Part shown: positions 95 to 21,100 of the stretch, piece by piece | Layout of the letters: each line of letters begins with the position of its first letter | Position numbering within the stretch: position 1 is the first letter of the stretch | Assembly (NCBI GenBank): GCA_951406725.2 | Contig: OX597842.1 | Location: 14,446,001 to 14,510,000, forward strand | Origin: Octopus vulgaris | Lineage: Eukaryota | Length of the DNA stretch: 64,000 nt | Direction: 5' to 3' | Notes under the pieces: generated by a model | The model's input: the letters and a program-made list of their open reading frames with translations, nothing else | What the model was told of the DNA's origin: nothing | The model's database searches: none | Translations under genes and position numbers: made by a program

Positions 95-189
95 AGCTCT
101 AGATACGTTTTCCGCAGTGTTTATATCTACTTCGATATTCTTAACTGTTGAATTGTAAATCACATGAAATAGAAAGGAATTCGTCCAAC
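95..189 (-). CDS. Module 3 exon [33 protein letters not shown]
   Basis: 95 nt, phase 1-0; the gene continues left of the window. Confidence 0.88.
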
Positions 190-3100
190 CTATAAAAAGA
201 TTAAAAAAATAGAAGAATATACCATTACACTTATAAATGAAACACACGCCACACATGAACTGAATGTTAAAATTAAGATATAAACATAAATATCTTTATA
301 ACAACAGCGTTGTGAGTTTTTTTGCGGCGAGAGAAACTTTCATCTGATTCATTCAGTTCATTTACGACTGGCAAACGCATTGACACCACGCAATTTTATG
401 TTCTTTGTTAATGGCAGCAGAGAAATTATACGGTTGATAGAAGCCTGGAAAATCCGTAAACGCTTAGTTCATCAGCTCGTTTCATACAGCGACGTAGACT
501 GAGCCATTGATGATATTTTATAAACACTGACAGAGCGTAATGTATGAACAGCGATACGTATCAGTAATATCTATAATGACTTACGTTTCCTTATCGATTG
601 AACCATTTTATAGAATATTAATGAAATAAGCGGGTTTAACAAGTTCAATTGTTGCATGACTGGGCAAAGGTGTTTGGCGCAACCGATATCTGCGTAGGCA
701 AACAAAGGTTTCTGGTCGACTGCACTTTGCTCTACAGTTACTAGACATGGTCACTGTCCTTTGTCCCTAGGAACTGCCTGTCATTCTTCGTAACCAGAAT
801 GCTACACAGGGTTATATGCATATAAATGTAAATGGTGGATGCAATGACGCTATGTAAAGCACATGTTCCGCTAACTGACCTGAGATAAATACACAGATAT
901 GCAAACTCACAAGCATATTAAGTTGTCATTACGGAACTCAAATACAAAGACATACACTTATTCCACATATATGTATCCTCCTCCTACTACAACTTGTCTT
1001 ACTCCTCCTCCTTCCCCTCCTCCTCCTCCTCCTCCTCCTCCTCCTACTACTACTACTACTACTACTACTACTACTACTACTACTACTACTACTACTATCC
1101 CTGCTACTACTACTCTATGTGTACTTCGAAATACTCACGTGTAGTGTTATTTGGATTTTCAGTGATGCCCCCTGAAATGTAGCACCGTGACATGTCTGGT
1201 TCTTGCCAGATACCAGTGAATGGGGAACACTTTCGCATTTCTTGTTCTACCGCCGAGCTAGAGGAACAACAAAATAAATATAAAATATTATCAGACGTGT
1301 TAATGCATTTGTATTTTATCAATCTCAGAGAAATGTAAGAAAAAGTATTAACAGGTCGGTAATATAACCTCACAATTAAGTAAAGCAATGATAACTACGA
1401 ATCCTTTTGTAAGTAATCTGTTATTTACTCCACTGCCTCTCCTCAAAGTCTTTTCAAAAGATCTAACTAAATTGCAACATCTGCTTTTATTTATTATATT
1501 CTTGATATGATATATCTGAACGGTCCGGTTGAGGAAGTATTACAGCACCATGATATTAGTCCTAGGTGAGTGCACACGTTATGGATTCATATTTAATCAT
1601 CATCGTCATCGCCATCATCATCATCATCATCATCATCATCATCATCAACAGAAAAAATTGCTTGTTTGCTTATACCTGCATAGAGCTGACAAATTGCACC
1701 TGTTTAATTTATCTTAAAACTTATAAAATCCAGACTCCAAGAGAAATATCTCATATGCTTAGCACACATGGGGATTCGTAGTGGAAGCAACAGAAATGTC
1801 AGCATAGTGAGTCAGGTCCCACGATAATCTACTTTCTTCGCTCTCTACACAATAGTTACCATATAGTAACAAAACGAGTTGCTCTACAGTAAATAATAAA
1901 AATTCAATAAATAATATTACATTTATTTTATCAATTGAAAGTCCAGGCAATTACTTAAATCTTCACAACGAATGTTCTACAACTTTTTCTAATATTGGGA
2001 AGAAAGCAACTTTTGCTCGTCCAACCAATGCAAAAGTATGTCACATACTGCGTAAGATACAATATAGCAGTATTAATTAATTTGATCAGGCGCACGTCAG
2101 TTCTATCGTCTTAATATATCGAGATTTTTTAATTACTATAGCAGTGAATATTCTCTCAAAGAAACATCAAAATTTAGGAAGAACTATAACAATACAAACG
2201 AACCAATATCTTTTTGCTGTATTTGCATCACATGGGATCGTCACATTAGTCCCTACTTTGGTCATTGGCCAGTAGGAAGAGCGACTGTTTGTTGATGTTG
2301 TGTTTTCATTACAAACCACTGAAAAAGAAACAGAACGTTGATATGAGATTCTTATTAGGAAATTCATTGGTATGGTTTATATACTGGAAAAATACATGTA
2401 TATTGATAATGGTGAGTAGTTGTAATAGTGTAGTTTGTGGTGGTGGTTTTATTGCTGGTGGTAGCTGTAATAGGATTTGAAGGAGTAATAGAAGCAGTAT
2501 AGTAGCAGTTGTATTAGTACCACTACTATTAAAACTACTACTACTACTACTACTACTACTACTACTACTACTACTACTACTACTACTACTACTACTACTA
2601 CTACTACTACTACTACTACTACTACTACTACTATAATCATTTTCATGTGCTATCTGCTTTTAGGCTGATGATATATAATTTCCTAATATATATTTTGTGA
2701 CATAAGATTAAAATTTAAAACCTTATATTAAATAACTAAATACCATGCAAAATATATTAGTGATATTTAGAATTATATCTTGGTTTTGAAGGAAGACGTG
2801 AATAAACATCTAGCGACTAAGAGGGAAAGAAAACCAGAAAATACTCCGTATAATTTGTATAGAAATGAATTGACAGAGTTGTAAAGCAGGTTAAGCGAAA
2901 CTACTTCATGATATTTGTTCCGATTCTCTGGGCAATGATTTCAAATTTGGCATTCTTCATATCCATTTCCTCGAAAAATTACGAGACATGGTGTGGTATA
3001 GGCGTAACCGGATACTTTGCGTTTCTACTTCCAACATTTCACTATCTCATTTCAAATCCCAGAATGTCCGTCGCCGCTGAAAGGATTATTCTGTCACTTG

Positions 3101-18100: not shown

Positions 18101-21100
18101 CGTATACGTATGAGTAAGTCTGTGAAGAGAGTGAAGCAGAGAGACAAACAGCGTCAGGGAATTAATAGATACTCACGGCTCTAGATACGTTTACAGCAGA
18201 TGGTTTGTATTCGCTGGATTTCTTTAATGTTGAATTGTAAATTAGATGAAACAGAAAGAAATTGGTCCAGCCTATGGGAGGATAGAAAAATAGAAGTGTA
18301 TCATTGAGATTAGGAACAAGACACACACGACAGATGTAGTAAAATATATACACGTACACATTTATAAAGGATAAATTGTCTTATTTATTTGTATTCGGTT
18401 CAGTCTATTTAAAATCTCAATGAAACAACATCTAATCTCTTTATGTCGATTAGCCCGGTTGAGATTTTGCTCATATGCAAATTTCATTTATATTTTATAA
18501 ATTTGTAATAGCTATTGAGTAAAAGTGAAACAATTGTAGGCATTCTAATTATCTATAAGTTAATAAATTAGATTATATCTATATACTCTCGATTTTCGTC
18601 TTGTTTATCATATGCTACATTTTTAATACACAAACACACACACACAAACGCGCGCGCGTGCGCGCTCACACACACATACTCACACACACATATATATAAA
18701 TTCTATTTTCTCCAGCGCCGCCGTGAGTGATACATCATTTGAACGATATAGAGAATATTCCATCAGCATTCCCCCAACGACCTCAAATTTAGTTTCAGCA
18801 TCCATCCAAGGTCAGGACCCTTAGTCGTACGTCCCCTCCACAATTTAGAATCACAAAACATAGATACACTGCGACACAAATTCTTTTCCTCAACAGCCAC
18901 TGCCTTATTTAACATTGTCTCAAAACAGATCAATGAGAGAAAGGACCCCATAACATTTGAGGGAATCTAGAGAATTTTCTTCAAGGGATGTCAGTAAACC
19001 ACATATTCCTGGATACAAATGAATCAACAAGAACTCCTTACTCAAATGGGCCATGATACCACAAAATATGACCTAAGGAGGATTTAGCAAATCCCATTCG
19101 GTTGTACTATTAAGTTAGACATTTCCTGGACACATCTTTGGTCGAAACATCTCTAAATTACATATATATTCGACCATACCTAAGGAAGACGATTTGTTGC
19201 ATAGTAGGCTCCGAAACAGCGTGATGTGTATTACTACCACAAACCACCGGGTTTTTAAACACCTGAAAGTCATGGACAGGCTAGACAAATCGCCCTAAAT
19301 TCCATTCAGTGGGGATGGGCGTCGATGCTTAACAACTTGTACTTTGACAGGATGATACCCCCTTCGTTGAATCGGGGTCTTCCTTCAAACACACAACACG
19401 TTAAGTATGTGATCGATGAAGTTTATAACACGAGTGCTGCTTCTATTTCACTTTTGAATATTCTGCTTCATATAAAGATTAATATCCTCTCTTGGCATTT
19501 CCAAGTATTTGATACCACGGAAAAGGATTCAATTATGGATTAGATTTTAAGCCATTTAACATATAGTTATAGTCTGTGATATAGCTTGCAACAGATCTTC
19601 TTCGGTACGTGACATTGAAAGTCACAACAATGACCATGCATCGTTGTCTGTCACTCAGAAAAGGGGACTTGATGTAAGTTGCTTCACTTCCCTCTAACTT
19701 ACGTTCAGGTGTTTTTAAGAATATATTCTCCTAAACCTAAAACGCAGCCGACACATCAACTAACAACGCACACACACACATAAATATATATATGTGTATA
19801 TGTGTGAGTGTGTGTTATGTGTGCGTGTGTGTATGCGTGTGTGTGCATGCGTGTATGTGTGTGTGCATTGTCGACTGACATTTCTGTTGACAGGACACCG
19901 ATTTTAAATAAAGTGTTATATAGTAATAATATACAAATTAGTGTCTCCAGGTGTCTGAAGTTACAAGAACTGTTGTTTATATAAACAGCTGTGTTACTTG
20001 TTTCTCTGGGATTGGTCAAGTGATGTACGCACCTACAATGGGAACGCAATCAATTTTGAAAACTGATTACGGCGATTATACCTTTTCATATATTAACTAT
20101 TATACAATTTTCTTATTAAGCACTCACGTCTAATAAATCAGGTTAAATTATATAAGAAAATAAACATCGCTTACCAATGGAATAGTTCCTGTTGCATAAG
20201 TTTCCGGTGCAACAACTAACACAAGAAGCGCCACTGGTCCATTTATTGCATGTAAAGGTATTGTTTCTCAGAGCTGCAAGACATTTTCTGTATGTGCTGC
20301 AGGATTTTTCAAACTCCAATGTAACACCATTCATCGTTATCTTATTTTCACATACAGGCTGTTGCAATAAATACAAAAATCATATACTACTACCACTTCT
20401 GCTGCTGAAGATACTACTACTACTGCTGCTGCAAGCAACAGCAACAGCATAGGGAATATTTAGTATGCGCGAAAGTTAAATGAATGATTATTCAAAATCT
20501 TATCGAAAAGCAACGAATTAGATCGATACAAACTGATGAAGTCTTGAAAGACAACTGCATACGCAATGTTGTGGAGATTTACTTATATTTATCGCTTGTA
20601 AATGATGTGTGATATACGTTGGAGATACGTAACGAGATCATATCAACACCGCTCTGTCACCCATTCCCAAACGCAGAAAAAAGGAAATGATAAATTCCAT
20701 TGAAAACCTTATCATTTAACCGATACTTTTTGCGTATTGCACAGTGAAGTCTTCATAGAAAGTGTACGAAATATCTTAGGTGTGAACCTCAGCAACAAGA
20801 GAAACAAGCGCAGCGGTAACTGCCGTAAATAAGGATAATCAAATAAAGGGTTGGACTTAAACACTCAGGTTTTGCAAATAAAACAGAAAATGCATAAATG
20901 GATCCAAAAGGTAGAGTATATATTTCTCATCAGCATGCATATTCTATTGCAATAAAATGAAGATACACAATATTCGCATAAAAGTTGGAGAGAAAATATC
21001 CCAGATTCTGAAGAATCACTGAAGAACATCACGCTTCTTGATAATTCTTTCTTGAAACGATCGATCATGAATTAGGCAAGCTATAAATAATAGAGTGTTA

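Follow-up and report, generated by a model that had tools for sequence, protein, structure and literature searches.

ADGRG6/GPR126, an adhesion G protein-coupled receptor (aGPCR), carries, in the zebrafish ectodomain (PDB 6v55), a ferredoxin-like SEA domain of ~105 residues before its HormR, GAIN, and seven-transmembrane (7TM) domains. In the accessible part of their report, Leon et al. (bioRxiv 10.1101/805515) place this SEA domain directly before HormR-GAIN and describe it as uncleaved. According to the sources as far as they were available, the zebrafish domain has no furin site, while the SEA domains of human GPR126 and Notch are cleaved by furin, and those of ADGRF1/GPR110, ADGRF5/GPR116 (both with the SEA fold in an aGPCR ectodomain), and MUC1 self-cleave at a GSVVV/GSIVA motif. 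From octopuses, the available portion of Ritschard et al. 2019 (PMC6408891) describes an octopus-specific aGPCR expansion, termed group 3, with leucine-rich repeats (LRRs), a GPS, a 7TM region, and an occasional Death domain. Here, we analyzed a window of 64,000 nucleotides (nt) of Octopus vulgaris DNA (assembly GCA_951406725.2, contig OX597842.1, positions 14,446,001 to 14,510,000). This window very probably represents the ectodomain-coding middle of an O. vulgaris aGPCR with the anatomy LRR(n)-LRRCT-LU-[SEA-like+HormR]x3-GAIN-7TM, in which LRRCT is the LRR C-terminal cap and LU a Ly6/uPAR-fold domain.

A preliminary description, made from the sequence, had reported a recurring set of exons of 95/53/158/115/86–119 nt with a third copy starting at 189, and enumeration of open exons bounded by AG and GT on the minus strand recovered exactly this set. 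The five-exon module (exons A to E) is present twice in full. In module 1, exons A1 (18177–18271), B1 (14217–14269), C1 (10626–10783), D1 (7723–7837), and E1 (6349–6434) measure 95, 53, 158, 115, and 86 nt, respectively (507 nt in total); in module 2, exons A2 (5306–5400), B2 (4058–4110), C2 (3453–3610), D2 (2204–2318), and E2 (1139–1257) measure 95, 53, 158, 115, and 119 nt, respectively (540 nt in total). Module 3 begins with A3 (95–189; 95 nt), and the rest of it, together with GAIN/GPS and 7TM, lies beyond the window edge. Splicing by coordinates agreed with the earlier statement that both modules begin and end in phase 1. All 12 exons tested (the 11 module exons and the upstream exon at 20358–20175) have AG/GT ends, and the spliced chain, which starts with the exon at 20358 and ends with that at 95, comprises 442 codons with no stop. 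The introns align as well, as had been reported: in a self-comparison, seven blocks between 25–4158 and 5237–14317 have 81–94% ungapped identity, and the 95-nt exon plus its flanks occurs three times in the window.

Using the Nei-Gojobori method, we obtained ratios of nonsynonymous to synonymous substitution (dN/dS) between the modules of 0.41 for exons A–C (0.166/0.402; 101 codons) and 0.25 for exons D-E (0.030/0.120; 64 codons). In a crude simulation with substitutions only and with divergence set to that of the flanking introns, one copy retained every one of its 10 splice dinucleotides and an uninterrupted frame in 54 of 20,000 runs. The module is real; a five-exon, phase-1 symmetric unit has been duplicated together with its introns, and its copies are open and under purifying selection.

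Exon C matched the O. vulgaris gene model P0001 (CAI9743447.1) at 100%. This model begins at exon B1, which corresponds at 100% to P0001 residues 1–18, and omits A1, the most divergent of the A copies, whose frame stays open when it is joined to the LU exons upstream. It takes another donor in A3 than the spliced window chain, to which 345 of 349 residues are identical, and it also matches B2 and C2. P0001 contains three SEA-HRM modules, the third one complete, followed by GAIN, a GPS at 740–784, and 7tm_2 at 797–868; everything beyond base 1 of the window (the rest of module 3, GAIN, and 7TM) is known through this model alone. The GPS, which is outside the window (Pfam E 1.2e-13 at 740–784), has a cleavage site reading HL/TSF, which fits the HL/T consensus. 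The paralogs P0007–P0009 have a full 7TM domain.

Contigs of 4 of the 24 listed sequencing runs (X1–X4) were placed on 4890–8040. Much of the word share of these runs stems from a high-copy repeat at ~7285–7570; contig depth is concentrated in exons A2, E1, and D1 and in repeats, with zero depth in most bins of the introns. The D-E intron was spliced out with CT..AC ends in all four runs. The exact E1-A2 joint (5399/6348, CT..AC) was found in one of the four, X2, at a depth of 32.6 and with 87 nt on the short side, supporting A2 beyond exon enumeration and splicing by coordinates. In run X1, a contig of 531 nt combines both alleles of D2 with an E whose divergence sets in at the same point as that of E2, and its seven differences in A are all of the A3 type, i.e., D2-E2-A3. 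The E-to-A joint was also present in a variant form in X1, X3, and X4 (see below); overall, contigs of all four runs carry E-to-A joints. Neighboring modules are spliced into the same mRNA, with an internal-type E followed by A in transcripts. These joints remove the reading, raised in the preliminary description, that the modules belong to separate truncated gene copies that are never spliced together.

AlphaFold2, given a nine-row alignment, predicted for module 2 the order beta-alpha-beta-beta-alpha-beta over residues 2–99 (E2–12, H22–38, E42–51, E54–64, H69–82, and E96–99), with a predicted local distance difference test score (pLDDT) of 55–85 over the SEA-like block; exon A1 would encode strand 1 and the start of helix 1. 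Exons A–C thus give a ferredoxin-like fold in this model, as the preliminary description had supposed when it called this region SEA-like. In a structure search of 48,161 chains, SEA domains ranked first (TMPRSS6; Z 8.5, root mean square deviation [rmsd] 3.2, 109 aligned) and third (2e7v; Z 8.4, rmsd 2.6, 84 aligned), with MscK also at Z 8.4, and in the Atlas structure search, which uses the Atlas's own model, SEA clusters held ranks 1 and 2 (TM scores of 0.76 and 0.75). At the homologous place, Pfam SEA matched below its cutoff in P0037 (E 0.0013) and P0040 (E 0.027, profile 3–98 of 106), which are two of the seven diverse homolog stretches tested and the two most divergent homologs. With this sub-threshold evidence and the fold, A–C is probably homologous to SEA domains. 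The SEA domain of GPR126 itself is not among the structure matches listed, which does not exclude it; the Atlas feature search returned no result for the SEA part, and single exons A, C, and E gave no meaningful Pfam family. Weak Pfam matches of single exons to DUF4141, TUTase, and Toxin_7 were treated as noise.

As the preliminary description had noted, the GSVVV autoproteolysis motif is missing; the beta2-beta3 loop reads GLRGQKEIF in C1 and GLKGEKEIF in C2. None of the three P0001 copies has GSVVV/GSIVA in this loop, and SVVF is found there in 2 of the 34 family copies; a furin site (R-x-K/R-R) is present in the loop of none of these 34 copies. A missing GSVVV motif is not unusual, since zebrafish Gpr126 has an uncleaved SEA domain directly before HormR. 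We also considered a disulfide across the beta2-beta3 loop; the predicted register gives no support for it. In P0040, the most divergent relative, a basic RRRKRR stretch lies inside the HormR loop and may be a furin site outside the SEA domain.

Based on sequence, exons D-E encode a HormR domain, with the first half in D and the second half in E. Exon D1 alone matched Pfam HRM with an E value of 0.014, and P0001 as a whole reached 30.4 bits against a cutoff of 26.2 with two stretches, of which the one at 249–303 includes the part encoded by E2. Five cysteines and two tryptophans are retained in each of the three HormR copies. E1 is of the internal type with a phase-1 end, and E2 adds to the second half of HormR an 11-residue linker with two sequons. 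In the structure model, the HormR part has a pLDDT below 50 over most of residues 103–168.

Directly upstream of module 1, we identified exons at 20175–20358 and 23178–23269 (minus strand) as the second and first exons, respectively, of a putative LU-fold (three-finger) domain, preceded by an LRR C-terminal cap exon at 26006–26175 (minus strand). The cap, the two cysteine-rich LU exons, and A1 join in an open frame of 180 codons, and the relatives P0002, P0007, P0009, and P0010 each have this order within a single protein. The second LU exon matched Pfam UPAR_LY6_2 below the cutoff (E 0.0093), and the domain has a ten-cysteine pattern ending in CC..LCN. Folding this domain from the paralog P0008 (21 rows) gave a pLDDT of 72.7, and the top 34 of the 50 listed structure matches were LU, three-finger, or TGF-beta receptor ectodomains, the best being Lynx2 (Z 7.6, rmsd 2.8, 80 aligned). 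Foldseek agreed with the three-finger assignment, though with no match at E<=0.001, and an Atlas feature search gave two unnamed clusters at 0.77 and 0.75, below the lead threshold. This LU-fold domain (23269–20175), which follows the LRR cap and precedes the SEA-like part, is family-wide, and it is unannotated in the databases consulted and in the accessible table of PMC6408891.

A module profile search returned 39 proteins among 1.84 billion representatives; 20 proteins were looked up, and 17 of these are named Octopus or Argonauta, 1 is a Logan protein (P0040), and 2 are unrelated HRM arrays. By profiles, 53 of the 67 proteins compared belong to the family, in a census that set aside three unrelated HRM arrays and has some redundancy among cluster members. 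Of the 53, 33 have a SEA-like and a HormR domain once each, and just one of the two, often in fragments, in 17; P0002 and P0013 have two SEA-like domains and one HormR domain, and P0001, with three of each, is the sole family protein with more than one HormR domain. The clusters of P0019 and P0031 contain A0A0L8FLR8 and A0A0L8HDZ7, members of group 3 of Ritschard et al. Judging by sequence, the gene belongs to this known octopus aGPCR expansion, with the predicted architecture LRR-LU-SEA-HormR-GAIN-7TM; most members have a single SEA-like and HormR domain. The InterPro table for group 3, in its available form (PMC6408891), has no whole-word "SEA," no PF01390, no uPAR/Ly6, and one "hormone receptor" entry, and the accessible text of the article makes no mention of module repeats.

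The family profile scored best against ADGRG2/G6 and covers 6v55 from profile position 344 to 725, so that the sequence match starts at about HormR and does not cover the SEA domain. The NCBI name "G6-like" reflects similarity of GAIN/7TM; Pfam scans of 23 proteins found no CUB or PTX domain, as an ADGRG6 ortholog would have. GPR126 has one SEA-HormR block below a CUB-PTX head, whereas P0001 has three blocks below an LRR-LU head. ADGRA2/A3 (GPR124/125) resemble the octopus receptor in joining an LRR head to a HormR-GAIN base, but have a single HormR domain and an immunoglobulin domain between LRR and HormR, where the octopus receptor has LU and SEA. The SEA-HormR block itself has a precedent in Gpr126, in which SEA lies before HormR-GAIN. 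The statement that tandem HRM domains are atypical held within the family but not beyond it, as unrelated proteins such as P0038 repeat HRM. P0038 and P0047, from ENA assemblies, have 10 and 20 HRM-like stretches, respectively (those of P0038 by Pfam HRM), and, unlike the octopus module, are pure HRM arrays with no SEA-like, LU, GAIN, or 7TM domain detected in the models examined; in the octopus gene, the HRM domains are not side by side and alternate with SEA-like domains.

DNA identity between the modules is 81–85% over the A, B, and C blocks and mostly 92–98% over ~1.3 kb around D-E, intron included. This high-identity tract (1105–2450) has ~88–98% identity per 100-nt bin to ~6315–7950 compared to 78–89% in the other blocks, and both of its ends are near (TAC/AGT)n microsatellites; D1 and D2 are identical but for 2 of their 115 nt. 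In trees of 34 and 33 rows after length filters, SEA3 of P0001 groups with SEA2 of the O. bimaculoides model P0002 (support 98/93), and both internal P0001 HormR copies group with the P0002 HormR (97/92), apart from terminal-type HormR. The O. bimaculoides model shares the E-A junction, and the neighboring single-module models P0003–P0006 begin with sequence similar to B1-C1. The module number is 3 in the O. vulgaris model compared to at least 2 in the O. bimaculoides model. If P0002 is the ortholog, the tree groupings imply that the two-module state predates the split of the two species. Either unequal crossing-over or gene conversion within a paralog cluster would have produced the third module and left a mosaic of old SEA halves and nearly identical HormR halves; unequal crossing-over with gene conversion alongside it or in its wake would explain this mosaic.

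A D exon with 11 differences from D1 is found in the deepest contigs. This variant was seen in all four runs and is absent from the window. Its depth compared to window-type D was 35 versus 4.1 in X1 and 19.6 versus 5.0 in X3, and it reached 110.5 in X4 and 245.6 in X2; where both occur, the variant is 4 to 10 times deeper than the window-type contigs. Between its E and A lie ~41 unplaced letters, implying an E of 101 nt. The variant contigs of X1 and X3 are 552 nt each with different start points, and that of X3 has the same 30 letters of E at both ends, running from A back to D. By arithmetic, these contigs are consistent with a closed in-frame loop of 522 nt, or 174 codons. Such a loop could represent nearly identical modules in tandem within a different gene or allele; it could also be a circular RNA or come from assembly bubbles that had collapsed. 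The two diagnostic motifs of the variant were found in none of the 67 proteins compared, and a search with exon D plus flanks found no gene model for it.

The two extra SEA-HormR blocks have 6 and 10 N-glycosylation sequons, and the last HormR domain alone would abut GAIN. In the accessible parts of the respective articles, SEA-HormR-GAIN of GPR126 moves as one rigid arm (PMC13475471), and a longer ectodomain blunts or flattens the mechanosensory response of dCIRL (PMC5548486). Together with the lack of a known SEA cleavage signal and the sequons, these observations lead us to favor that the extra blocks would form an uncleaved, glycosylated stalk. Such a stalk would move the LRR-LU head off the membrane, altering ligand reach, and would change how tension or ectodomain closure reaches the tethered agonist of GAIN. 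By analogy, we give about equal weight to the extra blocks being, or not being, an uncleaved spacer that sets ectodomain reach, and we consider the explanation as a whole, a triplicated SEA-HormR module as the stalk of an O. vulgaris aGPCR, reasonably probable.

Several points weigh against this explanation. P0001 ends after ~2 transmembrane helices (7tm_2 profile 3–81 of 250), so that the 7TM domain is incomplete in the model. The contig placement spans 3,151 of 18,177 bases, with the LU-A1, A-B, B-C, and C-D joints outside it; X1–X4 were classed as RNA by guess, and X2, which has the exact E1-A2 joint, bears species label B and has two differences in A. The model of module 2 is weak, with a mean pLDDT of 60.7 and its HormR part below 50. 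In the structure search, MscS and further ferredoxin folds are tied with the SEA domains to within 1 Z; Foldseek with the SEA-like model had no match at E<=0.001, nor did the matches listed include a SEA domain, two module profiles searched against PDB sequences found no SEA or HormR chain and chance matches only, and Pfam SEA did not match the copies of the window. Finally, the bootstrap of the SEA tree had not converged.

Two of the alternatives to a stalk concern the use made of the modules, and we regard each as unlikely. The modules could be optional cassettes: owing to the phase-1 symmetry of each, receptors with one, two, three, or more blocks would result from skipping or from variation in copy number, so that ectodomain length would be regulated. 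The deeper variant in all four runs and the 552-nt contigs of X1 and X3 fit this, but the loop could equally be a fixed array of a paralog, a circular RNA, or collapsed assembly bubbles, and no skipping joint was seen, although the stretch 4890–8040 is unable to show one. Among the family models, P0026, P0028, and P0066 are without an entire SEA-like domain and P0033 and P0035 without an entire HormR domain; as SEA-like and HormR are phase-symmetric sub-blocks, loss or skipping is possible in these five, but they may also be prediction errors. Alternatively, the duplication could be of no use and simply tolerated. It would then be a side effect of unequal crossing-over within an unstable cluster of paralogs, and its frame would have stayed open for no other reason than that a frameshift destroys the receptor. 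The gain and loss of LRR exons in the same region, partial second SEA pieces in the paralog models P0013–P0015, and the differing module number of the two species point this way; the dN/dS values and the retained cysteines and tryptophans argue for selection on the folds, which is still compatible with tolerance, and the two-module state is common to the two species. Still less likely, the extra blocks would be ligand-binding repeats that raise avidity and not passive spacers. Homogenized HormR halves would be expected if a shared surface matters, and the HormR domain of GPR126 forms part of a regulatory interface, according to the accessible part of PMC13475471; against this, there is no known ligand, and the intron is homogenized too (93–98%), which a conversion tract explains without selection.

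The remaining alternatives concern what the modules are. It is improbable that A–C is a ferredoxin-like domain unrelated to SEA: ties at Z 8.0–8.5 with MscS, PheRS, and other non-SEA chains and the missing significant sequence match would suit such a domain, whereas its place before HormR-GAIN is that of the SEA domain in GPR126, Pfam SEA aligns along almost the entire profile in the two homologs that diverge most, and SEA heads both structure lists. It is highly improbable that the modules represent an assembly artifact or what remains of separate, truncated copies of the gene, and that they are never joined by splicing. The locus does lie within a paralog cluster, and B1-C1 does resemble starts of single-module models, but E-to-A joints occur in all four runs, the introns between E1 and A2 (948 nt) and between E2 and A3 (949 nt) are short, the same E-A junction recurs in O. 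bimaculoides, and the copies differ by 15–19% over most of their length, which is too much for haplotype duplication.

Ectodomain length and rigidity have been proposed to set the mechanosensitivity of aGPCRs, and evidence so far comes, as far as the sources were accessible, from artificial spacers (dCIRL, PMC5548486) or a short spliced linker (GPR126). A natural series of one, two, and three modules in one young octopus family would be a ready-made test of this proposal, in an expansion reported to be enriched in arm nerve cord, suckers, and skin. SEA-like and LU-fold domains are now assigned to ~190 unannotated residues of this expansion. More speculatively, and with doubt on our side, octopuses might vary the ectodomain length of this family through differing numbers of stacked, in-frame SEA-HormR blocks, among them a strongly expressed array (or circular RNA) of near-identical 522-nt modules, and so have a natural length series of mechanosensitive aGPCRs under an LRR and Ly6/uPAR head new to this receptor class. 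The receptor family and the SEA-HormR-GAIN arrangement are already known, and duplicating a phase-symmetric block within a gene is in itself nothing unusual, which limits the surprise. A literature search, with most subscription papers outside its coverage, found no description of repeated SEA-HormR blocks or of an LU domain in an aGPCR.

The LRR exons, 72 nt each, lie in the region 32365–60046 (minus strand). A script identified open AG..GT exons at 60046–59975 and 38767–38696, and inspection by eye added others near 49299 and 32436; copies near 56392, 50723, and 37388 look damaged and appear to have lost a splice site or the frame. LRR exons multiply by a similar tandem duplication, with 36149–37509 matching 37500–38895 at 90% and 55503–57141 matching 59183–60768 at 89%.

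Several gene models are unusual in other respects. P0002 bears the source name "toll-like receptor 5," yet corresponds to the LRR-LU-module part of this aGPCR family, and Pfam found no TIR domain in it. P0001, P0004, and P0005 end in an identical short C-terminal peptide after an incomplete GAIN or 7TM domain, apparently because the predictor picked a false terminal exon. In the O. vulgaris models P0013, P0014, and P0015, a partial second SEA lies beyond the point where GAIN begins, which suggests that parts were duplicated independently or that gene models were fused. Proteins of 10–20 HRM-like repeats in ENA assemblies comprise P0038, P0047, and P0063–P0065, with one cluster member of 2,866 residues.

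The window DNA is animal-type, AT-rich, and rich in microsatellites. The high-copy repeat at 7285–7570 is found in the D1-E1 intron only, and its contig depth is in the tens of thousands or more. We take it to be similar to a short interspersed element; ARAGORN called no tRNA in 1–20400. Frames at 14700–16494 (plus strand), 45322–46556 (plus strand), 52800–55100, and 33000–34100 (minus strand) are presumably decayed intronic mobile elements, namely, a non-LTR (long terminal repeat) reverse transcriptase with a restriction-like endonuclease tail, a Penelope-like reverse transcriptase, a CR1/L2-like reverse transcriptase, and a mariner-like transposase. On the plus strand, donor-like sites are present at 1566, 2412, and 7931.

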